From IMG/VR virus record IMGVR_UViG_3300045747_000454, positions 52,034-116,033 of that record: 64,000 bases of DNA, one strand, 5' to 3'. The notes under the pieces were generated by a model that was given only the letters and a program-made list of their open reading frames with translations, searched no databases and was not told the origin of the DNA. A program made the translations under genes and the position numbers. Shown piece by piece: positions 33,779 through 64,000 of the stretch (its first letter is position 1; each line of letters opens with the position of its first letter). The DNA comes from a virus.

Positions 33779-33847
33779 CGAACCTAGGAACATTTTAGCT
33801 GCCGTCTGAAAATGGTGTACTATACGCTATTACAGACGGGAGCTAAA

Positions 33848-38514: not shown

Positions 38515-38516
38515 GC

Positions 38517-41877: not shown

Positions 41878-43421
41878 TCACCTTTCGTCAGTATCTAGAA
41901 GAGCGCTCGATGAGCGCAACTGAGCTTGAGAAGGTCGCGACTCGGCACGCCAACACTGCGAAGATCGGCTTCGAGTTCGAGTTCGCCCTGCCGCCTGGAC
42001 ATCGCCTCATCTCCGCCGAGAGCAACGAGATGCGCGACACGGCAACGCTCGACGAGTTCGATGACATGGAGGAGCTGCTGCACGCTCTTGGTGCTGCTCG
42101 CCGAGACTTCAGCAGCTTCAACAGCGCCTACAACGATTGGAAGGAAGAAGCTCAGAACCTCTGGGTTGATGAGAACTGGAACGCCTATAACGAGAATGAT
42201 GAAGATGAGGGGCGCAGCGAAGCGTTGGATTACTACGAACGCAGAGAAGCTGAAGGCATGACCGAGCTCGAGTTCGTCAAGAGCGAGTATGGCAGTCGCC
42301 TTGAGATGCTGGCTCACTTTGGCGTGTCGCCAGACCACGGCTGGAGCGACGAGCGCAACAACGACCGATCAGCCTTCTACACCTCGCAAGCATCTGAGGA
42401 CGATGAGAAGTTCACGCACGAGCTTGTCGCCAAGGAGCTGCACAGCGACCTCGGCGTTGACATCGTTGTCCCAGCAATTGAACCACACGAACCGTCGACG
42501 CAGTGGATGGTGGTGCCAGATGGTTCAATCAGCGGTGGCAGCGGCGTCGAGGTCGTTTCACCACCGTTGCCGCTGAAGGAAGGTCTTGAGAAGCTTGCTG
42601 AGATGTTCGCGTGGATGAAGAGCCAGTACGTCATCACCAACGCGAGCACGGGCTTTCACATCAACGTCAGCACGCCAAATCTTTCGAACCTCGACCCAGT
42701 CAAGCTCATCGTCTTTCTCGGTGAGAAGCACGTGTTGACACAGTTCAATCGGGTGCTGAACACCTACACATCGCAGCAGTCTGAGCGCATCATCAACTCA
42801 GTCGGCTCATCAGGCAAAATGCCGAAGGAGGCGCAAGCGCTCATCGACCTGGCAAAGTCGGTGCTGTCCAATCAGAAGTACTCGTCGGTCAATCTGAGCA
42901 AGCTGGCGCACGGCTATCTTGAGTTTCGCATCGTCGGCAACGAGAACTATCACAAGCGCCTGAACGAGGTTCGCTCAGCCTCGCTGCGCTTCGTCTCAGC
43001 GCTTGAGGTCGCCTGCGACCCTGACGCCGAGCGCAAGCTGTACCTGAAGAAGCTGGCAGCGATGATGGACCTCGGTACGACGCGCGACCACAACGATGAC
43101 TTCGACAATCGCCCAATCACCGACATTCTCGACATGGCGAGCGAGAACAATCTACCGTATGACCAAATGATGGAGATGGCGAAGAAGGGCAACGTCACGG
43201 CAGTGCAGCGCGGCAAGGCGGTGAACTTCATCATCAACATTCTGATGGAGCAGCTTCACTCTTCATTTGTCTCACTCGGCATCAAGCATCCAAGCGCGCG
43301 CCACCGTGCTGAGCTGAAGCTGCTGCTGAAGCGCCTTGGAGTGACAACGGATGACCTTCACGCGGTGGCAGACAGACCTGAAAGTACCCTCAACCTTCGT
43401 TGGTTCTTCGCCGAAAAGTGA
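41874..43421 (+). CDS. amidoligase (COOH-NH2 ligase) family enzyme with capsid-targeting-like leader
   Basis: IGFEFE, DGSI, EVVSPP, NASTGFHINVS, KY.SVN, LEFR; leader MITFRQYLEE. Confidence 0.8.
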   Translation: MITFRQYLEERSMSATELEKVATRHANTAKIGFEFEFALPPGHRLISAESNEMRDTATLDEFDDMEELLHALGAARRDFSSFNSAYNDWKEEAQNLWVDENWNAYNENDEDEGRSEALDYYERREAEGMTELEFVKSEYGSRLEMLAHFGVSPDHGWSDERNNDRSAFYTSQASEDDEKFTHELVAKELHSDLGVDIVVPAIEPHEPSTQWMVVPDGSISGGSGVEVVSPPLPLKEGLEKLAEMFAWMKSQYVITNASTGFHINVSTPNLSNLDPVKLIVFLGEKHVLTQFNRVLNTYTSQQSERIINSVGSSGKMPKEAQALIDLAKSVLSNQKYSSVNLSKLAHGYLEFRIVGNENYHKRLNEVRSASLRFVSALEVACDPDAERKLYLKKLAAMMDLGTTRDHNDDFDNRPITDILDMASENNLPYDQMMEMAKKGNVTAVQRGKAVNFIINILMEQLHSSFVSLGIKHPSARHRAELKLLLKRLGVTTDDLHAVADRPESTLNLRWFFAEK

Positions 43422-45450: not shown

Positions 45451-46089
45451 ATGAAGGTCACTGAACTATTCGAAGCCTACTCAGTTCTGCCAAAGCTTGA
45501 GAACATTGGAACCATCGGCGTCAAGCAGGCTGGCAACGTCTACACCGTGTCAGCCAGCGCCAAGTCAGGTCCCATCGTGGCCGGCATCATGAGCGTTTGC
45601 AAGACGCTCGGCAGCAAGAAGGGCTACACGCTCAAGACCCTCACTGGCAAGGTCATCGACCAATCGGTGCTGTTCAAGCTCTATGACACTCGCCCATACG
45701 GCGTGAAGGTCGTGTCCGACGAGCCGAACGCCGCCGAGGTGATTCAGAAGGCAGCGGAGTCCGCTACCGCTGGAGTCATCTCTGACTTCAAGAAGATGGT
45801 GCAGCACAAGAAGGACGCGCCGAAGCGTAAGGCTGAAGCGTCGAAGTACGCTGCCGCTGGTCGCCGTGAAGACATGAAGAAGTACGACGAGCTCTACGGC
45901 AAGGGTACTTGGAACCGTGTCACGTACAAGCAAGAAGGTGGCGACGACGGCTATCAGTACGTCGTGCGCGTCGATGGCAGAGTGATTGACAATGGTCTCA
46001 CGCTGTCTTCAGCCAAGTACGAGAAGCGTGAAGCGGTCAAGCGTCTCGCCAAGAAGGAAGGTCTGGGAACCTTCGGGAAGAAGTCATGA
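45451..46089 (+). CDS. basic hypothetical protein with leader MKVTELFE
   Basis: Late promoter, GGAG RBS. Confidence 0.75.
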   Translation: MKVTELFEAYSVLPKLENIGTIGVKQAGNVYTVSASAKSGPIVAGIMSVCKTLGSKKGYTLKTLTGKVIDQSVLFKLYDTRPYGVKVVSDEPNAAEVIQKAAESATAGVISDFKKMVQHKKDAPKRKAEASKYAAAGRREDMKKYDELYGKGTWNRVTYKQEGGDDGYQYVVRVDGRVIDNGLTLSSAKYEKREAVKRLAKKEGLGTFGKKS

Positions 46090-46433
46090 AGGTAACTGAA
46101 CTATTCGAAAGTCTGGCACCAGGTCAAGCGGCTTGGAAGGCTGAGATGACGAAAAAGGGAGCCGTCAAGTTCAAGCGCGACGAGCACGGCGGTGGCGCCG
46201 TTGATCGCATCGTCGCCTACAACGAGGCTGGCAAGGTCGTTGGTGGCTTCAATCTGAAGGCACGCGTCGCCGAAGGCGTCAAGGACAACTCCGAGAAGCT
46301 GGCAACGCTGAAGCGCCGCCTTCGTGAGCTGACAACTGACTTTCACAACATGGGCTACACCTTCGGTGAGGCTGAGCGCAAGCTTCGCGTCAAGCAGATC
46401 AAAGACGAGATTGCCGAGATCGAGGCGAAGTGA
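46086..46433 (+). CDS. hypothetical protein with leader MKVTELFE
   Basis: Same 8-aa leader as the upstream gene; ATGA overlap. Confidence 0.75.
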   Translation: MKVTELFESLAPGQAAWKAEMTKKGAVKFKRDEHGGGAVDRIVAYNEAGKVVGGFNLKARVAEGVKDNSEKLATLKRRLRELTTDFHNMGYTFGEAERKLRVKQIKDEIAEIEAK

Positions 46434-46993
46434 TCACCTTCAAGCAGTTCCTCGAAGAGGAAGAACGAACCATCCACGCCAAGAAGATCAAGGACGCAAA
46501 GCCTTGGTCTGCTAAGCTGGCTGAGGGCGACTACACCATCGGTGACGTCACGTTCAGCGCAGCCAATGGTCTTGGCGCGGTGCCGTACAATCAAGAGGTC
46601 AACTACTTCGGCTTCGTCGGGATGACAAAGCCATCAACGTTTCTAGAGCTCGCTCTGCCGCACGACGGTCAGCGTGAGCTTGACGCGAGCAACATTCAGC
46701 GGCTGATTGAGGAGGGCTACGCGTGTGGCATTCCGTTCATGCAGCTTCGACTGAACGACGAGGGTCTGCCACGCATCGAGGGGCATGAGGGTCGAGCTCG
46801 CATGATTGCCATTCAGAAGATTCTCGGCGATCAACCAATCCCAGTTCACTTTCTGCTGATGAACGGACTGCGCTCGAAGAACCTGACGCCAGAGCGTCTC
46901 GAAGCTATTCGGGATGGCATCGAGTCTGAGAACGGCAGCAAGTACGTTCGACATCCATTCTCACGAATCTACGTCAAGGGCGAAGCCGCCTAA
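46430..46993 (+). CDS. ParB/sulfiredoxin-like domain protein with leader MITFKQFLEE
   Basis: P..FL.LA...I...IEEG...GIPF.....RIEGHEGRARMIAI..I.GD..IPV. Confidence 0.6.
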   Translation: MITFKQFLEEEERTIHAKKIKDAKPWSAKLAEGDYTIGDVTFSAANGLGAVPYNQEVNYFGFVGMTKPSTFLELALPHDGQRELDASNIQRLIEEGYACGIPFMQLRLNDEGLPRIEGHEGRARMIAIQKILGDQPIPVHFLLMNGLRSKNLTPERLEAIRDGIESENGSKYVRHPFSRIYVKGEAA

Positions 46994-50955: not shown

Positions 50956-52317
50956 ATGCCAGCATCAATCAAAGGCCTACTGAACGACTCGCAGATCGCG
51001 CTTGAGAAGCAAGCGTCCGATAAGTTCGGTGCGGCGGTTGAGGGCTTCGCGCACGGCACGCTCGGGCTTACTGATCCGAACAAGGTTCAACCAAAGGTCA
51101 ATCGCAATGATGGGTCGTGGTACGCAACGTCCTACGCTGCGGCTCTTGCTGGTGCCTCAGACTTTCGCCCGAAGCTTAAGTTCCTCTTCAAGGTCGAGTT
51201 CAACTTCACCCCAGAAGCTCAGAAGGTCATCAACACCGTTCCAAATCTGAAGAGCAAAGAGTTCTCGTTCATGATCAAGCAGGTTGACCGCCCGAAGATT
51301 ACCTTCGAGTACGAAGAGGGCGTCAACATGTACAACTTTCGCACGAAGGCGCTGAAGAACATTCAGCACCGAGAGTTGACGATGATCTTCATGGACGACG
51401 TTGGCAATCGCGTCTTCGACTTCTTCCGTGTCATGATGATGATTCACTCTCCAATCACGCAGCGTGCTGTTGCTCGTGATGGCACGATGCTACCGCCAGA
51501 GCGCATTCAAGCTTCGTACAATGCCGGCAACAGCATGGCATTCACGCAGCTGACTGAGAACATGCTCAACAAGCAGGCGGCGAACAATAAGGACAACGCT
51601 CACCGCGCCGTCGTCAACTCGACGTTCGGCAACTCTATTGAGAGCATTCGAGTCAAGCAAATCTTCGTCAACCCAATGAAGGGTCTGGCAGACGCAGTTG
51701 AGATGGTCTCGTACGACTTCATCAATCCACGCATCACCAACTTTGACCTTGATGAGCTGTCGCACGAGAGCAATGAAGTCAATCTGCTGACAATGGTCTT
51801 CGACTACGACTGGATGGAAATGGTCGACATCGGCACCATCGGTTCGAAGACCGTGTCATACGGCGATGATCAGAAGCAACAGATGATGGCGAAGGGGTTG
51901 CACGGCGCCCCAACCGACATCTCACCAAACAGCGTGAATGGCGGCACCAACGCTACTGCTGCTGGTGGCAACAAGGGATTGTCTGGTGCGCTCGGCTCCA
52001 TCGTCGATCGCCAGCTCACGAACGTCTCAAAGGACCTCGCCTCAAAGGCGCTCAAGACCGTGGCAGGCAATGGACGCTTCGCTAACGTCATCTCACAGCA
52101 AGCTGGCAGCGCCTTTGGCGGTGCTGGCGACGCACTGTTGAATGGCGCCGTATCTGGCATTGGCGGTCTGCTCAGCAGCGCCACGAACCCGAATGGGCGC
52201 ACCGCGTCCAATGTTAGCTCATCATCTCGCCCTGGCGCAGACTCAACTTCGACTGGCACACCGTCAATGACGCAGGTGACATCGACTGGCGTTGACATCC
52301 CTTACGGACAGACCTAA
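50956..52317 (+). CDS. tail-tube-like baseplate junction protein (gp54-like), putative
   Basis: PKLKFLFKVEF; K.VDRPK..F; N.YN; INPRIT.FD.DELS; L...FDYD; G/S-rich tail. Confidence 0.65.
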   Translation: MPASIKGLLNDSQIALEKQASDKFGAAVEGFAHGTLGLTDPNKVQPKVNRNDGSWYATSYAAALAGASDFRPKLKFLFKVEFNFTPEAQKVINTVPNLKSKEFSFMIKQVDRPKITFEYEEGVNMYNFRTKALKNIQHRELTMIFMDDVGNRVFDFFRVMMMIHSPITQRAVARDGTMLPPERIQASYNAGNSMAFTQLTENMLNKQAANNKDNAHRAVVNSTFGNSIESIRVKQIFVNPMKGLADAVEMVSYDFINPRITNFDLDELSHESNEVNLLTMVFDYDWMEMVDIGTIGSKTVSYGDDQKQQMMAKGLHGAPTDISPNSVNGGTNATAAGGNKGLSGALGSIVDRQLTNVSKDLASKALKTVAGNGRFANVISQQAGSAFGGAGDALLNGAVSGIGGLLSSATNPNGRTASNVSSSSRPGADSTSTGTPSMTQVTSTGVDIPYGQT

Positions 52318-52769
52318 TGGCACATCAAGGTCGCTTCATTCCAAAGAACCCGCAGAAGTACGTGGGGCGCAGCACGAACCAAATCATGTTTCGGTCGTCG
52401 TGGGAGTGCGCCTTCATGAAGTGGCTCGACACCAACAATGCCATTCTGCGCTGGGGTTCAGAAGAGCTCGCCATTCCGTACGTGCATCCCTTTGACGGGC
52501 GCATGCATCGGTACTATCCAGACATGGTCATCATGTACATGGACACGACCGGCGCGGTCAAGCGCGAGATCATCGAGATCAAGCCGCACAAGGAAAGCGT
52601 TGTGACGCCAAAGATGACCGATCGCGATCGTCAAGCGCTCATGATCAATCAAGCAAAGTGGAAGTACGCCGCTGAGTACGCCGAGAAGAACGGCGCAGTC
52701 TTTCGCGTGCTCACTGAGCAAACCATGTTCAAGCAAAAGCCGAAGAAGGCAGTAGGAGCAGCAGTATGA
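52317..52769 (+). CDS. head completion protein, T4 gp4-like (TnsA-type nuclease)
   Basis: GRF.PKNPQKY.G; FRSSWE; W.SEE..IPY; RYYPD; IEIKP; NQAKW; F.VLTE. Confidence 0.93.
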   Translation: MAHQGRFIPKNPQKYVGRSTNQIMFRSSWECAFMKWLDTNNAILRWGSEELAIPYVHPFDGRMHRYYPDMVIMYMDTTGAVKREIIEIKPHKESVVTPKMTDRDRQALMINQAKWKYAAEYAEKNGAVFRVLTEQTMFKQKPKKAVGAAV

Positions 52770-53053
52770 AGGTCAATGAACTACTCGATGAAGGTTGGGC
52801 GAGCAAGACAGCGATGATCGCTGCGCCATTCGCTATCGCCGTTGGGACTGCCTACGTTGCGCCAAAGGCAACGATCGACGGCAACACCTACGACAAGACA
52901 ACGATCCACATGATGGACAAGGCAAAGGACCTCAAGCACGGCGTGACCACGCTGCACGGCAAGAAGGTCAAGGTCGTGTACGGCACCGTCACGTCGCAAG
53001 CAAAGGGTGGTCCACGCGACATCAAGGTCTACGCAGTGAAGGACGACCAATGA
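52766..53053 (+). CDS. small protein with leader MKVNELLDE and a hydrophobic segment
   Basis: AGGAG RBS; ATGA overlaps at both ends. Confidence 0.65.
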   Translation: MKVNELLDEGWASKTAMIAAPFAIAVGTAYVAPKATIDGNTYDKTTIHMMDKAKDLKHGVTTLHGKKVKVVYGTVTSQAKGGPRDIKVYAVKDDQ

Positions 53054-53520
53054 GCGACGTTCGCACTCTCGGCAAGGTCAAGATTACCAACCCATTGGAT
53101 GATCTCTTCAACACGCTGCCGAACGATCTCGAAGAGGCGGACAACTACGTTGGCGTCACTGAGGGTGAGCTCGCGGTAGCGCAGGGCAACGATGGCACCG
53201 CGGTCGTCGAGAAGGACGACGAGGACATCGAGATCGATCGCAAGGTCGATGAGGTCTACGAGGCAGCCATCGGCGCCTTCAACACGCAGACCGCCTACCT
53301 CGAGGTCATCGAGCCACGCTACGCCGCTCGCAACGCAGAGGTCGCCGCTAACTATCTGAACATCGCGCTGAACGCAGCGTCGGTGCGCGCCAAGGTCAAG
53401 GGTGATCGCAAGAAGAACGCAGCGTTCGTACCGTTCTCAAACAACAAGACAAGCGGTGCGGTCGTCGCCTCGCGTGAAGATCTGCTGCGCATGATGGCAA
53501 CGGACGCGGAGCTGAAGTGA
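53050..53520 (+). CDS. putative terminase small subunit (gp16-like)
   Basis: EPRY.AR..EVA..YL..AL.A...K and C-terminal VVASREDLLRM; start ATG 53050. Confidence 0.6.
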   Translation: MSDVRTLGKVKITNPLDDLFNTLPNDLEEADNYVGVTEGELAVAQGNDGTAVVEKDDEDIEIDRKVDEVYEAAIGAFNTQTAYLEVIEPRYAARNAEVAANYLNIALNAASVRAKVKGDRKKNAAFVPFSNNKTSGAVVASREDLLRMMATDAELK

Positions 53521-54425
53521 TCACGTTCAAGCAGTTCCTTAGCCTCGGCGAGGCTATCATCAAGCCGTGGGAGCAGTTCTCCGTTGAGACGGAGAAGGCT
53601 GTCGGCATGCTGAACTCCTCGCATCGTGATGGTCTCAAGGCCATCACGACCGGCGGGCTGCTGTTCCGCGGGTTCAAGGAGCTCGGCGTTGAGCGTGGCT
53701 CGATGGCGATCGTCGATCCATCGAAGGGCGAGCGCACCTCACGCGACTCGAACAACATGTATCAGCTCGCGATGGATCGCTCTGCTGCGCTGAAGGATTA
53801 TCCGTCTCGCAGCAAGGCGCTCATCTGCTCGACGAGCGCCTACGACGCTCGCCACTACGGTACGCCGTACGTCATCGTGCCAGTCGACGGTACGAAGATT
53901 GCGGTGTCGCAGTCTGAAGACTTCGCAACTGAGACGTTCATGAAGGGCAGCTTCACCTCGTCCGTTGAAAGCTTCAGCACGCTGCTACGGCGCGTCGCTG
54001 AGCAACTCAAGATTGATCACCGCGGTGATGGCAAGTTCACTGATGCTGATGCGCTCAATCGTGTCTTCGACTCTAAGACGCCTGAAGAGATCGCTGAGGC
54101 ATTCGACTCGTACAGCTACTGTGTGATATCGAAAGAAGATTTGATCGACTTCTTTGAGAAGCACAAGAAGAATCGCTTTGACGCGATCGCCACGTTCAGC
54201 TTTACACCAGCGACGATCAGCACTCGCCTCGTCGAGTACGGCGAGAACCTTGAACCAATCTACGACTACGAGTGCTGGCTCAGCGCGCGCTGCATGGCAA
54301 TCCCGTGCCCGATGTTCGGCGACATTCTGAATCGACTTAAGGAGCAGAGCTTCCCGATTCACGCTAAGTACAAGACGATGATGGAAAACGGAATCTTTCC
54401 AAAGATGATTGGGCGACAAGAGTGA
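53517..54425 (+). CDS. array-2A paralogue 1, putative ART-fold internal head protein
   Basis: LLFRG / RTSRDSNN.YQL / RS..LICSTS...A.HYG / ECW; leader MITFKQFL. Confidence 0.62.
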   Translation: MITFKQFLSLGEAIIKPWEQFSVETEKAVGMLNSSHRDGLKAITTGGLLFRGFKELGVERGSMAIVDPSKGERTSRDSNNMYQLAMDRSAALKDYPSRSKALICSTSAYDARHYGTPYVIVPVDGTKIAVSQSEDFATETFMKGSFTSSVESFSTLLRRVAEQLKIDHRGDGKFTDADALNRVFDSKTPEEIAEAFDSYSYCVISKEDLIDFFEKHKKNRFDAIATFSFTPATISTRLVEYGENLEPIYDYECWLSARCMAIPCPMFGDILNRLKEQSFPIHAKYKTMMENGIFPKMIGRQE

Positions 54426-55291
54426 TCACCTTCAAGCAATACCTCAACGAGGTCATTCTCAAGAAGTGGGAGGAGGAGCCAGTCGAACACGACAAGCTCT
54501 TCGACCTGCTGATAAAGAGCGAGTCAGCGCTGAAGGCTATCGAGAACGGTGGGCTGCTGTTCCGCGGCTTCAATACAGCGACCGTCAAGGACTCTGTCTA
54601 CATCGACCCGACGTCTGCTGCCCGCACCTCACGCGACTCGTACAACCTGTATCAGCTTGGTATGGACCGGTCTGTCTCGCTACAAGACTATCCGAAGCGC
54701 TCGCACTCGCTCATCTGCTCGACGAGCTGGCACCACGCTGATGACTATGGAAACGTGTTCGTCGTGTTTCCACCGAACAACGCGAAGGTCGTGATGTCGA
54801 ACGTCTCAGACTTTCTAGAGCAGCCGATTGAGAGCGACTTTGGTAGTCGCGTCACAAGCCTCGACAAGTTCTTTCGACGCCTCTGCAATCTGCTCGACAT
54901 CGAGCCTAATGAGCAGGGCAAGTTCATCGACGCTAAGCCAATCAACGCTGCACTCGACGCCGTCACATCGCGCCGTGCTGCCGAGCTCGTGTTCGACGCA
55001 GCATCACCGGCAGACCTCATCTACTACGAAAAGTTCTTCGAGACGCACAAGCGCAATCGCTTTGACGCGCTCGCCAGCGATGAGCTGACACCACGAGCTC
55101 TTGAGCTGCGCCTCAAGAAGTTTGGCGAGACGCTCTCTCCTGATCGCGGCGTCGAGTGCTGGGTTGACACGCGCTGCCTCGTCATCGCAGTGTCGCGCTT
55201 CGCCTCAATCATTCGACAGCTTGAGGATGCCGACTACTCAATCTATCGACAGTACATCGGTGACGCGACCGCGTGGCACTACAAGAACTAA
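54422..55291 (+). CDS. array-2A paralogue 2, putative ART-fold internal head protein
   Basis: LLFRG / SLICSTS...ADDYG / ECW; leader MITFKQYLNE. Confidence 0.62.
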   Translation: MITFKQYLNEVILKKWEEEPVEHDKLFDLLIKSESALKAIENGGLLFRGFNTATVKDSVYIDPTSAARTSRDSYNLYQLGMDRSVSLQDYPKRSHSLICSTSWHHADDYGNVFVVFPPNNAKVVMSNVSDFLEQPIESDFGSRVTSLDKFFRRLCNLLDIEPNEQGKFIDAKPINAALDAVTSRRAAELVFDAASPADLIYYEKFFETHKRNRFDALASDELTPRALELRLKKFGETLSPDRGVECWVDTRCLVIAVSRFASIIRQLEDADYSIYRQYIGDATAWHYKN

Positions 55292-55293
55292 CT

Positions 55294-56157
55294 ATGCTGA
55301 CCTTCAAAGAATACCTGGAAGAAGCCGTTCTCAAGCCGTGGAAAGAGAAGGACATCGACACCAAGAAGCTGACGAAGCGATTGAGCGAGACGCACTCGAA
55401 CTGGTTGTCTGCCGTGACGAATGGTGGACTGCTGTTCCGTGGTCAGCACGACATACACGGTGAGGTTCGTCAGATCAATCCAGCGAAGGGTCTTCGCTCG
55501 TCGCGCGACACGAACAACATCTATCAGCTCGCGATGGACATCTCACCAGCAATGAAGCTCTATCCATCGCGCGGTAAGTCGCTCATCTGCTCAACAACGC
55601 CAAGTGGTGCCAGCACCTACGGCTACGCGTACGCGCTCATTCCGGCAAACGACGCGAAGATTGCCGTCTCTGAAGAGGGTGACTTTCTCGAGCAGACTAT
55701 TCACGATTCGATTGTGTGCGATGAGATTCGAGCCTTCGGACCTGACCTTCAACGTCTAGTAAAAGACTGCGGCGGCGAGGTCAAAGATACGTTTGAAACG
55801 GCAGCAGAGCTCAACAAGATCTTCTCCAAGCTCAATGCGAAGAAGTTCACAACAGCGCTTGTTGCCCGCGCGTCAAACACAATTGACTCTGGCGCTCAAG
55901 CGATGCTGCTCAAGGAGTTTGAGCGAAACGTTCACAACCGCTTCGACTATCTCGCCGCTGATTCAATGTCGCCTCTTCAGCTCGATCTTCGCCTGGTTCC
56001 GTACGGATCCTTTCTCAGCGACAAGAGCGTCGAGTGCTGGGTCTCATCGAAGTGCCTCATGATTCCGATGAAGATCTTCAAGGGCATGTTGCAAGAGCTA
56101 GACAAGAGCGGACACGAGATCGCTCACAAGTACGCTAGCATGGCGTGGCAAACATGA
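55294..56157 (+). CDS. array-2A paralogue 3, putative ART-fold internal head protein
   Basis: LLFRG / SLICSTT...ASTYG / ECW; leader MLTFKEYLEE (ATG 55294). Confidence 0.62.
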   Translation: MLTFKEYLEEAVLKPWKEKDIDTKKLTKRLSETHSNWLSAVTNGGLLFRGQHDIHGEVRQINPAKGLRSSRDTNNIYQLAMDISPAMKLYPSRGKSLICSTTPSGASTYGYAYALIPANDAKIAVSEEGDFLEQTIHDSIVCDEIRAFGPDLQRLVKDCGGEVKDTFETAAELNKIFSKLNAKKFTTALVARASNTIDSGAQAMLLKEFERNVHNRFDYLAADSMSPLQLDLRLVPYGSFLSDKSVECWVSSKCLMIPMKIFKGMLQELDKSGHEIAHKYASMAWQT

Positions 56158-57023
56158 TCACCTTCAAAGAGTTCCTCGCCGAGAAGGTCATCAAGAAGTG
56201 GGAGAGCCAGAATCTCACGGTTCGCAAGGCGATCGACATTCTGAACACCTCACATCGGGACGGGCTTAGCGCCATCTCTAACGGTGGGCTGCTGTTTCGT
56301 GGCAATGAGAACGCGCCTGACGCCATTCACACGATCGACCCGCGAACTGGCATTCGAACCTCAAGAGACTCGAACAGCCTGTACCAGCTCGCAATGGAGC
56401 GCTCGACAGCGCTGCAAGACTATCCGTCTCGCAGCAAGTCGCTCATCTGCTCGACGAGCTTTCTAAACGCCAACGCCTATGGTTCGGTGTACGTTGTGAT
56501 TCCAGAGGATGGAACGCAGATTGCTGTTTATGAGAAGCGAGATCTGCTCTACGCCAAGTACAAGACCGGCACCTTCACTCAAGGTCTTGAGAGCTTCAGC
56601 TACCAGCTTGAAAATCTTGCCACTAGTCTTGGCTACGAGCCTAAGGGATACAAGTTCACGGACGCTGCCATGGTCAACAAAGCTTTCGCAAAGGCGACGG
56701 CTGAGGAGTTCGTCACTGAGCTGGCTGCCGCGATGCCGAAGACATTCAACTGGCCAACGTACACCAAGATCTTCGAGAAGGTCAAGAACAATCGCTTCGA
56801 CTACATCGCCTCGCAAGACCTAACCCCGGCAACTTTGAAGCTGAGCCTGCATAAATACGGCAGTGCCCTCGGTGTCACGAACGTCAACAGCCCTCACGGA
56901 AAAGAGTGCTGGTTCTCAGCAAAGGCGATCTTGATTCCAGTCAGCATCTTTCGCGAGATTCTGACTGAGCTGGAGACGCAAGGACACCCGATTCACAAGG
57001 CTTACCAGAAGAACGCGATATGA
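56154..57023 (+). CDS. array-2A paralogue 4, putative ART-fold internal head protein
   Basis: LLFRG / SLICSTS...ANAYG / ECW; leader MITFKEFLAE (ATG 56154). Confidence 0.62.
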   Translation: MITFKEFLAEKVIKKWESQNLTVRKAIDILNTSHRDGLSAISNGGLLFRGNENAPDAIHTIDPRTGIRTSRDSNSLYQLAMERSTALQDYPSRSKSLICSTSFLNANAYGSVYVVIPEDGTQIAVYEKRDLLYAKYKTGTFTQGLESFSYQLENLATSLGYEPKGYKFTDAAMVNKAFAKATAEEFVTELAAAMPKTFNWPTYTKIFEKVKNNRFDYIASQDLTPATLKLSLHKYGSALGVTNVNSPHGKECWFSAKAILIPVSIFREILTELETQGHPIHKAYQKNAI

Positions 57024-57784
57024 TCACCTTCAAGCAGTATCTCGACGAATCAATCAACGACAAGGGTCTCTTCAAGGCGATCTTCGTCATCGGGCTGCCT
57101 GGCTCTGGCAAGAGCTACACGATCACGAAGCTCAGCGGCGGCGTTGAGCCGCGCATCGTCAACACCGACCGTGCTGTTGAGCACCTCACTGGCATCACGA
57201 AGAGCAAGAAGAACATTCGAACCGACGCAAAGACCTTCGACAAGAATGAGGATGAGGTCGATGACCAGTGGACTCAGGACATTGCCGACTCGGCGCAGCG
57301 CATCACGGTCAACACGCTCACTGGCTACATCGATGGCATGCTGCCGCTCTTCGTCGACGGCACCTCGAACAACGTATCGCGCATCATGCACCGTGTCGGC
57401 ATTCTCGAATCGCTTGGCTACGACGTGGGTATCGTGTTTGTGAACGCCACCTTCGAAACCGCTGTGCAGCGCGCCAACAACCGTCGTCGCAAGGTCACGC
57501 AGGACTTCATCAAGTTCGTCGCCGATCAGAACGCCGAGAACGTCGCCTATCTGAAGTCGAAGACTACCTTCTTCCGTCAGGTCGACAACGACGCAGGTCA
57601 GCTCAACGATGACGCCTTGAAGAAGGCTTACAAGTCGGTGCAAGCGTTCTTCAGCGCACCGCTCAAGAATCCAGTTGGTAAGCGCACGCTCGCCAAGCTT
57701 GAAGAGACGAAGCAGAAGTATCTGAAGCCATCGATCGTCACGGATGACAAGCTCAAGCAGCTCGTCAATGGGTGGTACAAATGA
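57020..57784 (+). CDS. P-loop kinase (zeta-toxin/AAA_33-like) with leader MITFKQYLDE
   Basis: GLPGSGKS, VNTD, FVDGT, LGYDV..VFV, A.QR...R.RKV. Confidence 0.8.
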   Translation: MITFKQYLDESINDKGLFKAIFVIGLPGSGKSYTITKLSGGVEPRIVNTDRAVEHLTGITKSKKNIRTDAKTFDKNEDEVDDQWTQDIADSAQRITVNTLTGYIDGMLPLFVDGTSNNVSRIMHRVGILESLGYDVGIVFVNATFETAVQRANNRRRKVTQDFIKFVADQNAENVAYLKSKTTFFRQVDNDAGQLNDDALKKAYKSVQAFFSAPLKNPVGKRTLAKLEETKQKYLKPSIVTDDKLKQLVNGWYK

Positions 57785-58566
57785 AGCTCGCCGAACTCTA
57801 CGAAGCCGCTGCTGGTAAGGAGCTTCAGTTTGAGCCGGTGCCTGATGTTCAGAAGGCGATTGACCTGCTCAACGCTCACTGCAAGGACGCGCTGTGGATG
57901 CTGCACAACAACACGCCGATCTGGCGTGGTTTTTCGCACGCGCCAAACTTGCTGTTTCAAATGATCGACACGAGCAAGACCGAGCGAGTCAGCGAGAACA
58001 CATCGAACTACTACACTGCCATTCTCGACAACAATCCGAAGATGGCGAAGTATCCGAAGCGCAGCAGGTCGCTCATCTGCTCGATGGACAGGCATGATGC
58101 TGAAGCCTTTGCGTCTGGTAATCTTAGTGCCTTCGCCATCATCCCATTTGACGGCACCAAGATTGGCGCTGTCAACGAGGCCGACATGTGGAACGTTCAA
58201 GTGTCGATCTTTGGCCTAACTGAAAGCATCTCCAATATCAATGAGGTCTACGAGCAGTGGGGCATTGAGGACAACATTCGTAGCCTTGAGGAGTTTGCTG
58301 AGAACCTTCGAGCCGGCGACGTCAAGCCAAGTCTGAAGTACGGCAGTGCAAGGCTTTCAATCACGTATGACGTTAAGGAAAACTTCATGGACGAGCTGTA
58401 CGATGCCTACTCGCCACACAAGCTCGGCTTCTCTTTGCACACCACCTCTAATCTGCACGGCGTCGAAGGTGAGGTCTGGGTCGGCGGTCGAGTCATGATG
58501 ATTCACCCAGACATGTTGGACAAGCTTGTCAAGACCTACAAGTCACTTACCAAGGGCGCCAAGTGA
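57781..58566 (+). CDS. array-2B paralogue 1, putative ART-fold internal head protein
   Basis: IWRG / R.SENT.NYYT / SLICS....A.AF / GEVWV; leader MKLAELYE. Confidence 0.6.
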   Translation: MKLAELYEAAAGKELQFEPVPDVQKAIDLLNAHCKDALWMLHNNTPIWRGFSHAPNLLFQMIDTSKTERVSENTSNYYTAILDNNPKMAKYPKRSRSLICSMDRHDAEAFASGNLSAFAIIPFDGTKIGAVNEADMWNVQVSIFGLTESISNINEVYEQWGIEDNIRSLEEFAENLRAGDVKPSLKYGSARLSITYDVKENFMDELYDAYSPHKLGFSLHTTSNLHGVEGEVWVGGRVMMIHPDMLDKLVKTYKSLTKGAK

Positions 58567-59354
58567 ACCTACAAGAGCTACACGAATCTGCCGTCTACGG
58601 CAAGGACATGCAGATTGAGAGTAAGGGTGTCAAAGACGCCATTGACCTTCTCAACAAGCACTGCAAGAAGGCGCTGTGGATGTTGCACGACAACAATCCG
58701 CTGTGGCGCGGGCACAAGCATTCGCTTGAAGACTTCTCAACCGTCGACACCTCCAAGTCGGAGCGCGCCAGCACCAACACGCGCAACTACTACACAATCA
58801 TCCTCGACAACAATCCGAAGATGGCTGGCTGGCCAAAGCGCAGCAAGTCGCTCATCTGCTCGAAAGATCTTGATCGTGCGTTTGGCTACGCGCAGCACAA
58901 TAGCAGCTGGCTCTACGCCTTGATTCCATATGACGACGCCAAGATCGGCGCTGTGAACAGCGAGGACATCTGGGACGCTAGAGTCTCCTTAGGGTCTGTG
59001 ACGCAGGAGATTGAAGAGTGGAATGACTTCTGGCGCTATCTTGGCGCAGCCGAAAGCATCGAGGGGCTTGAGAAGATTGCGGCACGAGTGAAGGCTGGCG
59101 ACATTCATCAGCTGGATAAGATGCTGACAGCCGAGCAACGGCAAGACCTGATGGGCACCATCTTCGACGCGTACGATCCAAAGAGGCTTGGCTTCACGCT
59201 TCACAACTCAGCGACCGTGAAGAGAGCTAAGTTTGGTGAGGTCTGGGTCGAGGGCAAGGTCATGCTGATCAAGAAGAAGATGTGGGACCGCATTCGCGCG
59301 TCGTACAAGGAGTTGAGCAAGGCAGCTGGGCAAACGGTTGAGGACGACGAATGA
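58563..59354 (+). CDS. array-2B paralogue 2, putative ART-fold internal head protein
   Basis: LWRG / SLICS....AFGY / GEVWV; leader MNLQELHE. Confidence 0.6.
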   Translation: MNLQELHESAVYGKDMQIESKGVKDAIDLLNKHCKKALWMLHDNNPLWRGHKHSLEDFSTVDTSKSERASTNTRNYYTIILDNNPKMAGWPKRSKSLICSKDLDRAFGYAQHNSSWLYALIPYDDAKIGAVNSEDIWDARVSLGSVTQEIEEWNDFWRYLGAAESIEGLEKIAARVKAGDIHQLDKMLTAEQRQDLMGTIFDAYDPKRLGFTLHNSATVKRAKFGEVWVEGKVMLIKKKMWDRIRASYKELSKAAGQTVEDDE

Positions 59355-60124
59355 AGCTACAAGAACTCTATGAAGCCGCAGTCAAGGGCAAGGCGATCAA
59401 GTACGATCCGAAGAAGACGAAGGAGGCGATTGACATTCTCAACACGCACTGCAAGAACGCCCTTTGGATGCTGCACGAGAACAAGCCAATCTGGCGTGGT
59501 GCGAAGACGAACAAGGCTGCGCCGTTCCTCGTCGTTGACACGAGCCAGTCAGAGCGCAAGTCTGAGAACACGAAGAACTACTACACGGTCATTTTCGACA
59601 ACAATCCAGCAATGGCTGGCTTTCCAAAGCGCAGTCAGTCGCTCATTGGCACAACTGAGAAGACTCGGTCCTATGACTTCACTGGCTTCGGCTCGTACCT
59701 CTATGCCATGATTCCATTCGACGATGCCAAGATTGGCGCGGTGAATAGCTTCGACATCTGGGATGCGACGGTGTCGTTTGGCGACTTCGAGCAAGAGCTG
59801 AACTACATGAACAAGAAGTTCGAGCAAGCCGGCATTCCAGATACGATTGAGGGTCTCAAGGCCTTCGCCAAGAAGCTGAAGGATCCGAAGTTCGAGGTGC
59901 CAAGCGGCATGAAGTACATCTCACAAGAAGAGCGCAATGACTTCATGGCCTACCTCTATCGCGAGTACTCGCCAAAGAATCTTGGCTTCACGCTGCACAC
60001 CACCTCGAACATGAAGGGCGTTGAGGGCGAGGTCTGGGTTGGTGGCAAGGTCATGATGATCGAAGAGCCAATGTGGCAGCGCATTCGCAAGGCGTATGAC
60101 GCTGGCGTGCAGGATGACGAATGA
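59351..60124 (+). CDS. array-2B paralogue 3, putative ART-fold internal head protein
   Basis: IWRG / SLIGTT / GEVWV; leader MKLQELYE. Confidence 0.6.
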   Translation: MKLQELYEAAVKGKAIKYDPKKTKEAIDILNTHCKNALWMLHENKPIWRGAKTNKAAPFLVVDTSQSERKSENTKNYYTVIFDNNPAMAGFPKRSQSLIGTTEKTRSYDFTGFGSYLYAMIPFDDAKIGAVNSFDIWDATVSFGDFEQELNYMNKKFEQAGIPDTIEGLKAFAKKLKDPKFEVPSGMKYISQEERNDFMAYLYREYSPKNLGFTLHTTSNMKGVEGEVWVGGKVMMIEEPMWQRIRKAYDAGVQDDE

Positions 60125-60915
60125 GACTCGCTGAACTCTTCGAAGCCGAGGTCAAGGGATCGCCGCTGAAGCCTGAGGTCATTGAGAACGCGCTTGAGCT
60201 GTTCAAGACATCGTGCAAGAACGCGAAGTGGATGCTGGAGAAGGATCGTCCGATTTGGAAGGGCTTTCACGGAGTGCAGCCAGCGCCAGAAGGCAAGATC
60301 GCAGTCATCGACACGCACCAGTCAAAGCGCAAATCGCAGAACTCGCAAAACTACTACACTGAGATCCTCGATCACAGCAGCTACTTTGAGGGCTGGCCGA
60401 AGCGCAGTCAGTCGCTCATCTGCTCGCTCGACAAGAACTACGCCGAGGGCTACTCGCAGCGCAGCGGTGGGCTCTACGCAATCGTTCCGTTCAATGACGC
60501 GAAGATTGGCAGCGTCGAGGCCGTTGACATTTGGGGCGTTGAGTTTCAACCGTTCGGCGTTGGAAGCTCTATAGGTTTTGAGGACTTCAACTCTTGGCTT
60601 AAGCATCTCAAGATTACAGACACGATTGATGGCCTCTGCGACTTCGCCGAGAAGCTCGCCAATCGGGATGAAGATGCCGTCAAGGGCTTTGAAAAAGCGT
60701 TTCCAGAGGCGGCGAAGGACACGGACGTTCTCGACGACTTCATGGGTTATCTGAACGGCAGCCTGTCACCTGAGATTCTTGGGTTCGAACAGTACGATTC
60801 ACGATCAGTTCGCAACGCCATGGACGAGGCAGAGGTATGGGTGTCCGGCAAGGTGCTGATCATGACCGACAAGACCTGGGATGCTCTTGTTCTTCAGAAC
60901 AAGATGTCTGGGTGA
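60121..60915 (+). CDS. array-2B paralogue 4, putative ART-fold internal head protein
   Basis: IWKG / SLICS....AEGY / AEVWV; leader MRLAELFE. Confidence 0.6.
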   Translation: MRLAELFEAEVKGSPLKPEVIENALELFKTSCKNAKWMLEKDRPIWKGFHGVQPAPEGKIAVIDTHQSKRKSQNSQNYYTEILDHSSYFEGWPKRSQSLICSLDKNYAEGYSQRSGGLYAIVPFNDAKIGSVEAVDIWGVEFQPFGVGSSIGFEDFNSWLKHLKITDTIDGLCDFAEKLANRDEDAVKGFEKAFPEAAKDTDVLDDFMGYLNGSLSPEILGFEQYDSRSVRNAMDEAEVWVSGKVLIMTDKTWDALVLQNKMSG

Positions 60916-60948: not shown

Positions 60949-62076
60949 ATGATCACCTTCAAGCAGTTTCTCGCCGAGGCCAGCTCTGGCCCCGACAAGT
61001 GGGATAAGTACTTCGCCGACGCTGACACCGAGACGATCGTCAAGACCGACGGTGCGCAGCTCTACGACGTCTTCGGCACGCCGGTCGAGAAGGAGGTCGC
61101 TCGCGGCGACAAGATCAAGGTCCTCGCCGGCGAGTACGACACCAAGCCACGCGTTCGCATTGGCAAGGGTGAGTATCGCATGAAGCTCACCGACATCGAC
61201 AAGCCATTCAAGATGGACCACACGGTCAAGAGCGATCTGAAGCCTGACGTGCTTGGTCTCACCGGCAAGCAGAAGATCTCGACGCTCGCCAAGAAAATCA
61301 AGACGCTCATCGACGATCACAGCGACATTCCTGAGGAGACCGGCGCCTATCTGAAGGCGCTCGTCGATCACGCTGAGAAGCCGACCGACACGAAGAAGAC
61401 TGACAAGGTCAAGGAGCTGTACGTCGACAATGGCATCAAGGGCGACACAGCCCTGACGAACTCGATCAGCCGCGACTTCATGGAGCTGCTCGGACCATTC
61501 TTCGTTGTCAACGAGAAGCCAGAGTTCAAGGGTGGCACAGCCAACTTCCCAGAGCTCGGCAATGCTCCGCTGTTCGACTTTGAGGTTGAGAAGGACGATC
61601 AGACGACGCAGTTCTCCTCGAAGAAGTCAGGCAGCAACAGCAACACGCTGAAGGTCAGCGAGGTCGTCAAGCTGGTGGATGGCAACGCAGCGCTGAAGAA
61701 GAAGTACAAGCGCGAGTTTGATTTGATGACGATCATCAACACCTCCTCCGTGAAGCTTGCTCCTGCCAAGATCAACGACTGGCTTGCGACGACGTTCCCA
61801 GGCAAGTACAAGAAGGCTGCAGCGCCGACCGACGATACGACGATTGCTCGTCTCGAAGCCTCGACCGTCAAGTGGATCAATGAGCAGGCTGGACTGAACT
61901 TTCTGCCGCTCGTGCAGCTTTCCATTCCAGATCTCTGGTACGTTAAGTCGAAGTTGAACTCTGACGGCACGATCAAGGTTGAACCGCTCAAGTCTGGTCG
62001 CGACATCTCGAAGGCCAATCTGCGCAGCAAGTCCTCACCAGGCCACCTTGCTGACAAAATTGGCTTCGCAATGTAA
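60949..62076 (+). CDS. hypothetical protein with leader MITFKQFLAE; possible PD-(D/E)xK nuclease domain
   Basis: TAAATA at 60918-60923; DF.E.LGP...FP...N.PLFDF.....QFSSK. Confidence 0.55.
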   Translation: MITFKQFLAEASSGPDKWDKYFADADTETIVKTDGAQLYDVFGTPVEKEVARGDKIKVLAGEYDTKPRVRIGKGEYRMKLTDIDKPFKMDHTVKSDLKPDVLGLTGKQKISTLAKKIKTLIDDHSDIPEETGAYLKALVDHAEKPTDTKKTDKVKELYVDNGIKGDTALTNSISRDFMELLGPFFVVNEKPEFKGGTANFPELGNAPLFDFEVEKDDQTTQFSSKKSGSNSNTLKVSEVVKLVDGNAALKKKYKREFDLMTIINTSSVKLAPAKINDWLATTFPGKYKKAAAPTDDTTIARLEASTVKWINEQAGLNFLPLVQLSIPDLWYVKSKLNSDGTIKVEPLKSGRDISKANLRSKSSPGHLADKIGFAM

Positions 62077-62119
62077 GCCTGCACGAATAAATAGAGAACA
62101 CTCACTGGAGCATCCAAGC

Positions 62120-64000
62120 ATGTCCATTCTGCAAGAACTCACCTCTTCGGCGTACAATACGTCGGAGCTCAAGGCCATTCAGAGCTTTCTACTGGCAGAG
62201 AGCAAGACGCTCTCCGACCTCACGCTGAAGACCTGGCTCGGTACGGGCGAGAATCAAATCGCTAAGCGCGCTGCTGCGCTGCTCGACGACGACCTCGAAG
62301 CGCTGTACGCCTACTACAAGAGCAAGCCACGTCCAAAGGACACTGTTGGCGAGATGCGCTACGCCGCCATCATGTCGGCGTACAAGAAGCGTCACCACAT
62401 CACCGAAGCACAAGACGGCGAGCTCTCCGTTGGCGACACTGTCGAGGTCTCTGGCAACGTTCAGTTTCAAGACTGCGTCGGCGAGGTCGAAAGCCTGCAC
62501 GGTGGCTTCGTTGCCGTGAAGATCTACAGCTCGAACAGCACTCACTCATTCCACGCCTCTGACCTGCGCAAGATCGATGACGATCACGACCATGGCGATG
62601 ATGGTGATAACGAAGATGAGTACGATGGCGGTGACGGTGATGAATCGTTCTTCGTGGTCATTCACGACAGCGACGAGAACAAGTCGTTCATCGGCGAGTT
62701 CGAGAAGGACGGTGGTCGCTGGCGCGAGCACGTGGTGTCTGGCAAGCCGCCATACGCCTGGGGTGGTCGATTCATGAGCTACCTCAGTGCTCACGAGATC
62801 ATGTCGATGCTGACCCGCGACTTCAAGCACTACGAGGTCGAAGGTCCATTCGACAGCAAGGAAGAAGCCGTTGAGTTCGTTCACGGCAATCACGGTCACG
62901 ACACGCTGAAGGAAAGCGAAGAGCTCAAGGCGCTTGGTCGCAACATCAAGAAGGGCAAGAAGCCACCAGAAGATGAGTTGCCACCAGCTAATGATGAGCT
63001 GCCACCTGAGGACGGCGAGACTCCGCCAGTCGACGATGAGGCATCAACCGACGAGCCAGCACCAGAAGACGGTGATGTGCCTGCTGACGATGAGCTGCCA
63101 GCCGATGACGCTGCGCCGACCGACGAGCCGCCTGCCGATGAAGAGCCAGAAACAACGACCGCTGACACCGATACAGTGTCCGCCGACGCTGTCACGCCTG
63201 AGTTCAAGGTTGGCGACGTCGTCAAGCCGAACAAGGGTCAGCACGCTGGCGAACCACATGAGGTCGTTGGCATTCACCCAGACGGTGGTCTGCTCATCAA
63301 GCCACAGGGCCTCGATGACCAGGCAATCAAGTACACCGCCAAGTCGAAGACAGCCAAGATTCGCACCGACGACGTTGCCATCGTCGAGAGTCAGCAGCTG
63401 AAGCGTGGTCTGCTCAAGGCCGTCACTGAGACTCGTGTCGACAACGGTGCGCTGACGATGCCTGAGCTGCTCAAGCTCCGCAACGGTCTGTACGAAGCCG
63501 GCGACATGGTCGGCTATCGCGTCCTCGTTCAAGCCATCACCGAAGCCAAGAGCGGTGGCAAGCCACGCATGAAGGAAGTTGAGGGCAAGCTCGCAGCGCA
63601 CGCCAAGAGCAAGGGTGATCGCGAAGCCAAGTACGGCACGCTGTCGCCAGGCGACCAAGTGTCGCACGAGCAGACTCGCACGCGTCTGTTGAAGGACCTG
63701 TCGCGTGAGCGCAGCAAGGCCAACTGCTCTGAGGGCAAGGTCGGCGACTTCGTCGCAAAGGTCAAGCGCGGTGCCGAAGCAACTCAGAAGGCTCGCGGTG
63801 AAGCCGCAAAGATCTGGGGTTCGAAGGATGAAGACGAAGCCAAGAAGCACGTGAAGAACAGCAACCGCTACTCCAACCTCGGCACCGAGCGATCAGGTAA
63901 GTCCGACTACGTCCCACCGAAGAGCGCGCTGACCAAGCTGGCTGGCGCCGTCATGGGTCACCCAACCGGCGCGCCGAAGTACAAGGTCGGTGACACCGTC
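62120..64000 (+). CDS. large multidomain late protein, truncated by the window end (not in ORF track)
   Basis: TAAATA at 62088-62093, GGAG RBS, ATG 62120, open for 627 codons to the edge; MSILQEL leader, three (S/K)VGD.V KOW-like motifs, P/D/E-rich linker. Confidence 0.85.
   Translation, partial: MSILQELTSSAYNTSELKAIQSFLLAESKTLSDLTLKTWLGTGENQIAKRAAALLDDDLEALYAYYKSKPRPKDTVGEMRYAAIMSAYKKRHHITEAQDGELSVGDTVEVSGNVQFQDCVGEVESLHGGFVAVKIYSSNSTHSFHASDLRKIDDDHDHGDDGDNEDEYDGGDGDESFFVVIHDSDENKSFIGEFEKDGGRWREHVVSGKPPYAWGGRFMSYLSAHEIMSMLTRDFKHYEVEGPFDSKEEAVEFVHGNHGHDTLKESEELKALGRNIKKGKKPPEDELPPANDELPPEDGETPPVDDEASTDEPAPEDGDVPADDELPADDAAPTDEPPADEEPETTTADTDTVSADAVTPEFKVGDVVKPNKGQHAGEPHEVVGIHPDGGLLIKPQGLDDQAIKYTAKSKTAKIRTDDVAIVESQQLKRGLLKAVTETRVDNGALTMPELLKLRNGLYEAGDMVGYRVLVQAITEAKSGGKPRMKEVEGKLAAHAKSKGDREAKYGTLSPGDQVSHEQTRTRLLKDLSRERSKANCSEGKVGDFVAKVKRGAEATQKARGEAAKIWGSKDEDEAKKHVKNSNRYSNLGTERSGKSDYVPPKSALTKLAGAVMGHPTGAPKYKVGDTV

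Follow-up and report, generated by a model that had tools for sequence, protein, structure and literature searches.

Why would a phage keep two sets of four related genes, with a kinase gene between them, in one late operon? The question is raised by array 2, at positions 53517-60915 of a 64,000-nucleotide stretch of the IMG/VR record IMGVR_UViG_3300045747_000454 (hereafter the window). The window makes up the final 64 kb of a linear viral contig of 116 kb, for which CheckV estimates a completeness of 32%; hence, the contig is a fragment of a jumbo phage genome of ~350 kb. We consider it reasonably probable that array 2 encodes effectors with an ADP-ribosyltransferase (ART) fold, together with a kinase, that are packaged in the phage head and delivered into the host with the DNA.

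Eight coupled paralogues and a kinase

Array 2 consists of nine plus-strand open reading frames (ORFs) that overlap or abut: four of subfamily A, a P-loop kinase and four of subfamily B. The eight paralogues are translationally coupled. These genes, and the ORF that follows them, are (aa, amino acids):

53517-54425, +, predicted ART-fold paralogue A1, 302 aa; leader MITFKQFLSLGE; motifs LLFRG, LICSTS and YECW
54422-55291, +, predicted ART-fold paralogue A2, 289 aa; leader (V)ITFKQYLNE
55294-56157, +, predicted ART-fold paralogue A3, 287 aa from ATG 55294 (ORF open from GTG 55273); leader MLTFKEYLEE
56154-57023, +, predicted ART-fold paralogue A4, 289 aa from ATG 56154 (ORF open from 56145); leader MITFKEFLAE
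57020-57784, +, predicted P-loop kinase, 254 aa; class I leader MITFKQYLDE; Walker A GLPGSGKS
57781-58566, +, predicted ART-fold paralogue B1, 261 aa from ATG 57781 (ORF from 57772); leader MKLAELYE; ExE motif EGE
58563-59354, +, predicted ART-fold paralogue B2, 263 aa; the member modelled
59351-60124, +, predicted ART-fold paralogue B3, 257 aa; strand-2 motif SLIGTT; ExE motif EGE
60121-60915, +, predicted ART-fold paralogue B4, 264 aa; the most diverged copy; WKG for WRG; ExE motif EAE
60949-62076, +, unrelated 375-aa protein (ORF open from 60928); class I leader MITFKQFLAEA

The internal ATGs at 55294, 56154 and 57781, each of which opens a leader, are probably the true starts of A3, A4 and B1. 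Identity is 38-46% among the A copies, 37-52% among the B copies and 20-23% between the subfamilies. Moreover, all eight proteins match the N-terminal 257 positions of phrog_12810 (E 1e-20 to 1e-29), and thus their paralogy is not a matter of chance. The alignment contains LLFRG, R[TS]SRD, YQL, YP.R..[SA]LICST[ST], A..YG and ECW in subfamily A, and [IL]W[RK]G, NYYT, PKRS.SLICS and EVWV in subfamily B. A first-pass annotation, made from the sequence of the window, had described four plus four paralogues in two subfamilies with a P-loop kinase between them; the ORF list, the alignment and the phrog_12810 matches bear this out, and the motifs it quoted are reproduced, except for SLIGTT in B3 and WKG in B4, where K replaces the strand-1 R. 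Its canonical S-T-S motif does not hold for the array as a whole, being literally present in only three of the eight copies (the other readings are STT, SMD, SKD, TTE and SLD). The isoelectric points of the array-2 proteins range from 4.9 to 9.0, and most are acidic or neutral.

Leaders of the T4 type

The T4 capsid-targeting sequence is MKTYQEFIAE (PMC8442874), in which residues 4 and 7 serve targeting and residues 8 and 10 processing, the protease gp21 cleaving after L/I-x-E (PMC9026906). In the T4 record, IPII and IPIII start with MKTYQEFIAEA, IPI with MKTFKEF and Alt with MELITELFDE. The array-2 proteins begin with leaders of two classes. Class I, M-[IL]-T-F-K-[QE]-[FY]-L-x-E, is found on A2-A4, the kinase and ORF 60949, and keeps all four T4 positions (an aromatic residue at 4 and 7, L/I at 8, E at 10); in A1, the putative cleavage site is shifted, with LGE at 10-12. 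Class II, M-x-L-x-[ED]-L-[FYH]-E, with L-x-E at 6-8, is found on B1-B4 and on most members of array 1, a set of seven paralogues elsewhere in the window. The 116-kb contig has 22 leader-bearing ORF starts, compared with 0-1 in each of 20 shuffles, and leaders stand on at least seven unrelated proteins of the contig.

Over the leader-coding stretch, the DNA of the unrelated ORF 60949 and that of A4 are 90% identical, suggesting that recombination has exchanged leaders. This 375-aa protein has no match in Pfam, PHROGs or NCBIfam and no homologue among the 27 related loci listed. B-type proteins of other phages bear the class I leader, and the whole family of Agrobacterium phage Atu_ph07 carries a different one, MRWxQL[TNI]E, in which the L-x-E ending is kept. 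Additionally, the leader is the low-confidence part of both AlphaFold2 models described below. Given the shared leader DNA, the class swaps, the Atu_ph07 variant and the low model confidence, the leader stands out as a module of its own, open to exchange, as expected of a cleavable tag. The window also encodes a prohead protease (23643-24251), with a Peptidase_S77 match of 84.8 bits, over the cut-off, and a match to phrog_207 (head maturation protease) at E 2e-53.

Five more non-ART proteins that begin with class I or class II leaders are encoded on the plus strand at 41874-43421, 45451-46089, 46086-46433, 46430-46993 and 52766-53053, one of which is of 515 aa with an amidoligase-like PHROG match; they are candidates for additional head cargo. 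A scan of IMG/VR with the back-translated pattern M[ILT][TS]FK[QE][FY]L plus a second family motif gave at least 594 stretches, and 27 of those listed encode ART-like relatives. Hence, the leader may tag many other families in uncultured phages.

Homologues in purified virions

Purified virions of Atu_ph07 were analyzed by electrospray ionization tandem mass spectrometry (Attai et al., 2018; PMC6102473). The masses given in Table S5 of that study are 87.08, 56.49, 29.65, 30.93, 30.16 and 29.20 kDa for gp53-gp58, and 31.19, 29.55, 29.96, 29.61 and 41.40 kDa for gp59-gp63 (PMC6102473). The masses that we computed for AUZ94865-AUZ94875, eleven tandem homologues of the array-2 proteins, equal those of gp53-gp63 to two decimals, AUZ94865 being off by 0.01 kDa. 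It follows from this agreement that the mass spectrometry detected all eleven homologues in the virions, the unique peptides numbering 3-31 and the coverage being 12-46% (PMC6102473, Table S5). The sole remark of the authors on this region is that coding sequences 31-76 include many unpredicted virion proteins (PMC6102473). Among the eleven, gp54 (AUZ94866, 490 aa) contains two ART-like domains in tandem. We regard it as very likely that the array-2 proteins, too, are packaged in the virion.

The kinase as a member of the cluster

The sequence of the product of 57020-57784 confirms that it is a P-loop kinase: it has a Walker A motif, a catalytic Asp and an arginine-rich lid, and it scores 35.9 bits against AAA_33, where the cut-off is 27, and 31.9 bits against Zeta_toxin, where it is 22.3. 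Invariant in the kinase are G-x-P-G-x-G-K-S, N48, D50, D113, R151, R155 and R157. A profile search of the PDB ranks PSTK best (E 5e-7), followed by adenylate kinases, zeta toxin and Pnkp.

Whereas the paralogues match the N-terminal part of phrog_12810, the window kinase matches its positions 260-458. The two parts occur as one protein in Atu_ph07 gp53 (AUZ94865, 778 aa; record 39484-43316, L001 in our survey), with an ART-like domain at 31-238, a kinase at 250-450 and ~330 further residues; its UniProt label is 'Zeta toxin domain-containing protein' only. This fusion emerged via PHROGs and Atu_ph07, while a homology search for longer fused relatives of the family found none, and the sole result of scanning ten longer family members against Pfam was a weak hint of GNAT in one of them.

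Our survey of kinase linkage covered 27 IMG/VR loci among the matches listed (~23 distinct contigs) and the cultured relatives. In the loci surveyed, genes of the A, B and array-1 types are arranged in one tandem cluster with the kinase, and the copy number is 1 to 11 among the matches listed. The kinase is present in 16 of the ~23 related contigs and, among the matches listed, directly adjoins an ART-like gene in 13; its N-terminus is always a class I leader, followed by ES[IV]NDKG and then Walker A. We conclude that the kinase belongs to the system as a conserved component of the cluster. The first-pass annotation was thus right to call it a P-loop kinase, but not to treat it as a gene that merely splits the array, since it is a conserved, leader-bearing cluster member that is fused to an ART-like domain in Atu_ph07. 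A predicted complex of A4 and the kinase scored 0.00 ('no answer') and is uninformative either way.

The kinase also has a homologue (30% identity, E 1e-22) in the records of Pelagibacter phage HTVC008M (L031, 106562-107224) and Methylophilales phage Melnitz, marine T4-like phages of 141-147 kb. Its N-terminus is MIPFILKEG, and no ART-like neighbour was detected in the 12-kb stretch examined.

Predicted fold and active site

The AlphaFold2 model of B2, built on an alignment of 89 sequences, has a pLDDT (predicted local distance difference test) of 93.1 and a pTM (predicted template modelling score) of 0.89; that of an array-1 member has a pLDDT of 92.6. The split beta-sheet of the ART fold is predicted for the family. 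In exhaustive VIA-align searches of 48,161 chains, the top two in both searches, and all of the top ten for the array-1 model, are chains of the ART superfamily, the similarity being at modest Z. The closest solved folds are BC2332, classified as SCOP d.166.1.6 in the ADP-ribosylation superfamily (PMC3000352), and Arr. For the array-1 model, the top three are BC2332 (5.7), Arr (4.9) and DarT (4.3), and ranks 4-10 are AvrPphF, a PE-like toxin, diphtheria toxin, DarTG, cholix toxin, PARP-1 and DarT. For B2, the lower ranks include diphtheria toxin, a Tpt1-like enzyme with ADP-ribose (ADPR), tankyrase, cholix toxin, PARP15, RCD1, AvrPphF, TreX, PARP4, DarT and PARP3. In protein-language-model space, the nearest named cluster is DUF2441, at a weak 0.84, which belongs to the Pfam ART clan (PMC7955679).

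The ART triad lies on strands 1, 2 and 5 in the variants R-[ST]-E, H-Y-[EDQ] and H-H-h, and the R-[ST]-E clade is laid out as R-G-x, S-x-S and x-x-E, the last at the front edge of strand 5 (PMC7955679). In the B2 model, strand 47-50 ends in R49-G50, with an aromatic residue just before it, strand 96-100 carries I98-x-S100-T101, and strand 226-230 has E226 at its front; by strand position, the putative triad would therefore sit on the strands expected of an ART. Over the 89 sequences, R49 is conserved in 85 (96%), S/T at position 100, within I-x-[ST]-T-x, in 82 (92%) and E226 in all 89 (100%); the equivalents in array 1 are R37, T99 and E180. Judging by the models, an ART-derived fold is likely, and we suggest, more tentatively, that the proteins may be active transferases dependent on nicotinamide adenine dinucleotide (NAD+).

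A large family with repeated expansions

Arrays 1 and 2 are linked by hhalign (95.4%; with deeper alignments 98.1%, E 8.8e-14), the homology being restricted to the N-terminal ~125-135 columns. Invariant residues run in parallel (array 2/array 1: R49/R37, R68/R66, R93/R92, P122/P116, D135/D130, E226/E180). The profile similarity between the two arrays is therefore real, as the first-pass annotation required, and so is its count of 15 homologous members in three clades.

The family is large: among 1.84 billion representatives, a profile search matched 3756 clusters (50% identity) at E <= 1e-3, a number that falls to 2865 with the threshold at 1e-10. Almost all of the 3756 clusters are viral, as are 96-100% of the ESM Atlas neighbours. 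Neither Pfam, NCBIfam nor the PDB sequence set contains a match to the array-2 paralogues; in PHROGs, the function of the family is given as unknown; UniProt has no annotation for it; and each of the 28 significant structural matches in BFVD is an uncharacterized viral protein. Hence the family is undescribed, as had been supposed.

In a maximum-likelihood tree of 71 array-2-type proteins, A1-A4 of the window form one clade and B1-B4 another (Shimodaira-Hasegawa-like approximate likelihood ratio test, SH-aLRT, 99 each), and each is nested in a supported clade with copies from 8-10 other phages (98 and 99). This nesting indicates an A/B split older than these phages and fourfold expansions that are specific to lineages. 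Loci L008 (4+4), L015 (5) and L020 (3), as well as Atu_ph07, have undergone expansions of their own, which supports the idea of repeated tandem expansion. The first-pass annotation went further than these results in inferring an arms race with host defences from the expansion. The duplications are old, as the DNA-level repeats in array 2 are only 60-85% identical and limited to motif-coding stretches.

Genomic setting

Array 2 is surrounded by a T4-type late module and lies in a late operon; the phage is a jumbo phage related to T4. The main features of the setting are:

21920-23608, portal
23643-24251, +, T4 gp21-type prohead protease (Peptidase_S77), the expected remover of the leaders
26210-27562, major head protein
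33812-34663, +, homing-endonuclease-like gene (phrog_314, E 1e-31), between neck-protein genes
36567-41092, +, array 1, seven paralogues of 199-226 aa, between neck and tail-completion genes
52317-52769, +, gp4-like head completion gene, directly upstream of the array-2 cluster
52766-53053, +, 95-aa ORF with class II leader MKVNELLDE, at the operon start

A gp15-like tail completion protein, followed by sheath and tube, is placed between array 1 and the gp4-like gene. Among carriers of the family, the nearest cultured relatives are Agrobacterium phage Atu_ph07, Ralstonia phage RsoM2USA and Salicola phage SCTP-2, and an uncultured 484-kb phage is also among the nearest relatives. In RsoM2USA, the order of gp4-like gene, small leader-bearing proteins, ART-like gene and kinase is the same as in the window. 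A megablast of the array-2 region against cultured phages gave no match. The T4 late promoter TATAAATA was not found in the window, and sigma-70-like promoters and terminators in the array-2 region are not more numerous than expected by chance.

The ORF at 53050-53520, upstream of array 2, was compared with ORF257, an abundant virion protein of RsoM2USA, and did not match it. Downstream, the plus-strand ORF 61979-64000 runs off the window; its product of >670 aa contains low-complexity stretches that are rich in proline and very acidic (PPEDELPPANDELPPEDGETPP...), along with a repeated motif, VGD.V.., that is KOW- or SH3-like in appearance.

Proposed packaged effectors and the alternatives

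We postulate that the operon would supply head cargo comprising eight diversified ART-fold family members, the P-loop kinase and one or more other proteins unrelated to them. The tag of ~10 residues, of T4 type and ending in L-x-E, would bring each protein into the prohead core, where the gp21-type protease of the phage would cleave the leader after the Glu, and the mature proteins, of ~28-33 kDa, would remain in the head beside the DNA. They would enter the host at infection, like T4 Alt and the T4 internal proteins. In the host, the ART-fold proteins would most likely ADP-ribosylate host targets using NAD+, the paralogues probably differing in target through a variable helical insert, and the co-packaged kinase would act in the same pathway. 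Cleavage, injection, NAD+ use and targets are steps that we infer for proteins whose paralogy, kinase linkage and fusion, leader portability, accompanying protease gene and predicted fold are described above.

Several observations weigh against this proposal. Subfamily B and array 1 carry the class II leader, whose resemblance to the T4 IPIII tag is weaker. The virion data concern Atu_ph07 homologues in purified virions, whose place inside the head and cleavage at L-x-E are predictions. Foldseek of the model against the PDB gave nothing under E 0.5; Pfam ART-clan matches are absent for the eight window proteins and for the 89 family members, even at E 10; profile searches of PDB sequences gave no ART match; and hhalign against T4 Alt-C and ModA/ModB gave probabilities of 4% and 1%. 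The first-pass annotation had called the proteins ART-like and had named profile similarity to ARTs as a test of that claim: at the level of fold, the claim is supported by the models and by R, S/T and E on the expected strands, but profile similarity to curated ARTs or to T4 Alt, ModA and ModB was found in none of these searches. Moreover, the strictly invariant residues R68, S70, Y77, R93, D135 and W228 are family-specific and not classical ART residues, and the first E of ExE is variable (present in B1, B3 and B4, absent from A1-A4). R49, S100 and E226 are matched to the predicted NAD+ site by secondary-structure position only, and the two models come from homologous families and are not fully independent.

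One could accordingly ask whether the resemblance to ARTs reflects coincidence within a common alpha/beta arrangement, the proteins being another enzyme class or a new fold. We find this very unlikely: out of 48,161 chains, the best two hits of each search, the array-1 top ten and nearly all of a second-look list fall into one superfamily, DUF2441 (weak as its 0.84 is) points to the same clan, and conserved R, S/T and E occupy the strands where ARTs hold their triad. It is rather unlikely, too, that the packaged proteins are non-transferases, in which an ART-derived fold serves as a scaffold for injected stoichiometric inhibitors or decoys of host defence (cf. T4 IPI*) or for prohead-core structure. 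Such a role would agree with a leader of the T4 internal-protein type, with homologues in virions, with the lack of a profile link to active ARTs, with the loss of the strand-1 arginine in B4, and with the hypervariable copy number and lineage-specific expansions, as seen at T4 internal-protein loci (PMC3012670). However, polar residues are fixed across the 89 members (R68, S70, Y77, R93, D135 and E226 at 100%, R49 at 96%), as is typical of a catalytic or ligand site and not of a binder under diversification, the conserved kinase partner suggests chemistry, and the mostly acidic or neutral proteins differ from basic, DNA-associated internal proteins. Given the same isoelectric points, a DNA-condensing, histone-like role was considered unlikely.

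An alternative that keeps the enzymatic activity, and that we likewise rate as improbable, is that the packaged ART-fold enzymes and the kinase act on a nucleic acid or nucleotide and not on host proteins: the kinase might provide a 5'-phosphate that is then capped with ADP-ribose, bases might be ADP-ribosylated as by DarT, or NAD+-derived defence signals might be consumed or altered. Tpt1 and some PARPs are able to cap 5'-phosphate ends with ADP-ribose. This alternative draws on the conserved linkage and the natural fusion of ART-like domain and kinase, on the nucleic-acid-directed kinases that the PDB profile search ranks among the best (PSTK, E 5e-7, and, further down, Pnkp, with adenylate kinases and zeta toxin between), on structural neighbours that include Arr, DarT and Tpt1-like enzymes bound to ADPR-DNA, and on the invariant arginines R49, R68 and R93, which would suit phosphate-rich substrates. 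Yet the kinase assignment is generic, since AAA_33, Zeta_toxin and adenylate kinases score alike. T4 Pnk-like kinases carry an arginine three residues past the catalytic Asp, and this arginine is not conserved in the kinase family. Furthermore, eight to fifteen diversified copies are better suited to many protein targets than to one chemical substrate. A bolder version, which we regard as quite unlikely, is that the ART-fold proteins and the kinase would perform an undescribed, injected two-enzyme chemistry, making up a new class of counter-defence cargo, loaded in advance and widespread among environmental jumbo phages. It might consist of phosphorylation followed by ADP-ribose capping of nucleic-acid ends (phage DNA termini or host RNAs), or of the conversion of NAD+ or NAD+-derived immune signals, the paralogues supplying specificities.

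Relation to known systems and significance

Returning to packaged, injected ART-fold effectors as the preferred explanation, the family most likely belongs to a known kind, with Alt-type packaged transferases and the T4 internal proteins as its counterparts, and forms a new branch there that is both large and very divergent. T4 Alt, which has the paralogues ModA and ModB, is a T4-type phage protein built into the prohead core and injected with the DNA, and its short N-terminal propeptide is removed by gp21 (PMC9026906). Its start, MELITELFDE, resembles class II leaders (MKLQELYE). At the level of motifs, which in Alt are of the R-S-E type, LYRS, FVSTS and EME of Alt, and PLWRG/QLYRG and EQE[VW]MIP of ModA/ModB, have counterparts in P[IL]WRG, LICSTS and EGEVWV of array 2, ModA (PLWRG) and ModB (EQEWMIP) resembling the array-2 proteins in this respect. 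Unlike these motifs, sequence or profile homology between Alt and the array-2 family is not detectable (hhalign 4%). Alt is a single protein of 682 aa with a C-terminal ART domain, whereas the array-2 proteins are of 257-302 aa, occur in 8+7 copies per genome and have a conserved kinase partner, and their closest solved folds are BC2332 and Arr, not the cholera-toxin-like ARTs.

The T4 internal proteins have leaders (MKTYQEFIAEA, MKTFKEF) near-identical to MITFKQFLAEA and MITFKEFLAE of the window; their tag is portable across unrelated proteins, their loci are hypervariable, and their role is thought to be the delivery of counter-defence proteins. They differ in being of 8-20 kDa, basic and non-enzymatic, as opposed to array-2 proteins of ~30 kDa that are mostly acidic or neutral and have an enzyme-like conserved site. 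BC2332/DUF2441 (PDB 2aua) and Arr are, similarly, compact single-domain members of the ART superfamily, but they are bacterial, share 9-12% identity with the array-2 proteins, have His instead of Arg at the first triad position, and lack leader, arrays and kinase partner. Paralogous, protease-processed proteins inside heads are also known from the phiKZ-like jumbo phages (phiKZ, 201phi2-1, SPN3US), in which ejection or inner-body proteins are cut after Glu by a gp21-related protease (PMC9026906). These belong to another phage lineage, their cleavage motif is S/A-x-E, and an ART-like fold or kinase partner is unmentioned in that source (PMC9026906). The multi-copy arrays, the two leader classes and the kinase partner are unusual for such cargo.

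If our proposal is true, T4-related jumbo phages would hold up to ~15 ART-fold enzymes and a kinase in the capsid, active before phage gene expression, while T4 itself has one packaged transferase, Alt. Since the 3756 clusters are without annotation in Pfam, NCBIfam, PHROGs and UniProt, assigning a function to the family would provide annotation for metagenomic proteins in their thousands. Moreover, the leader with its L-x-E site would provide a simple, testable rule to predict injected cargo in uncultured T4-like phages, and the diversified paralogues a natural set for studying target choice by injected effectors. The cultured relatives Atu_ph07 and RsoM2USA make these questions directly testable.

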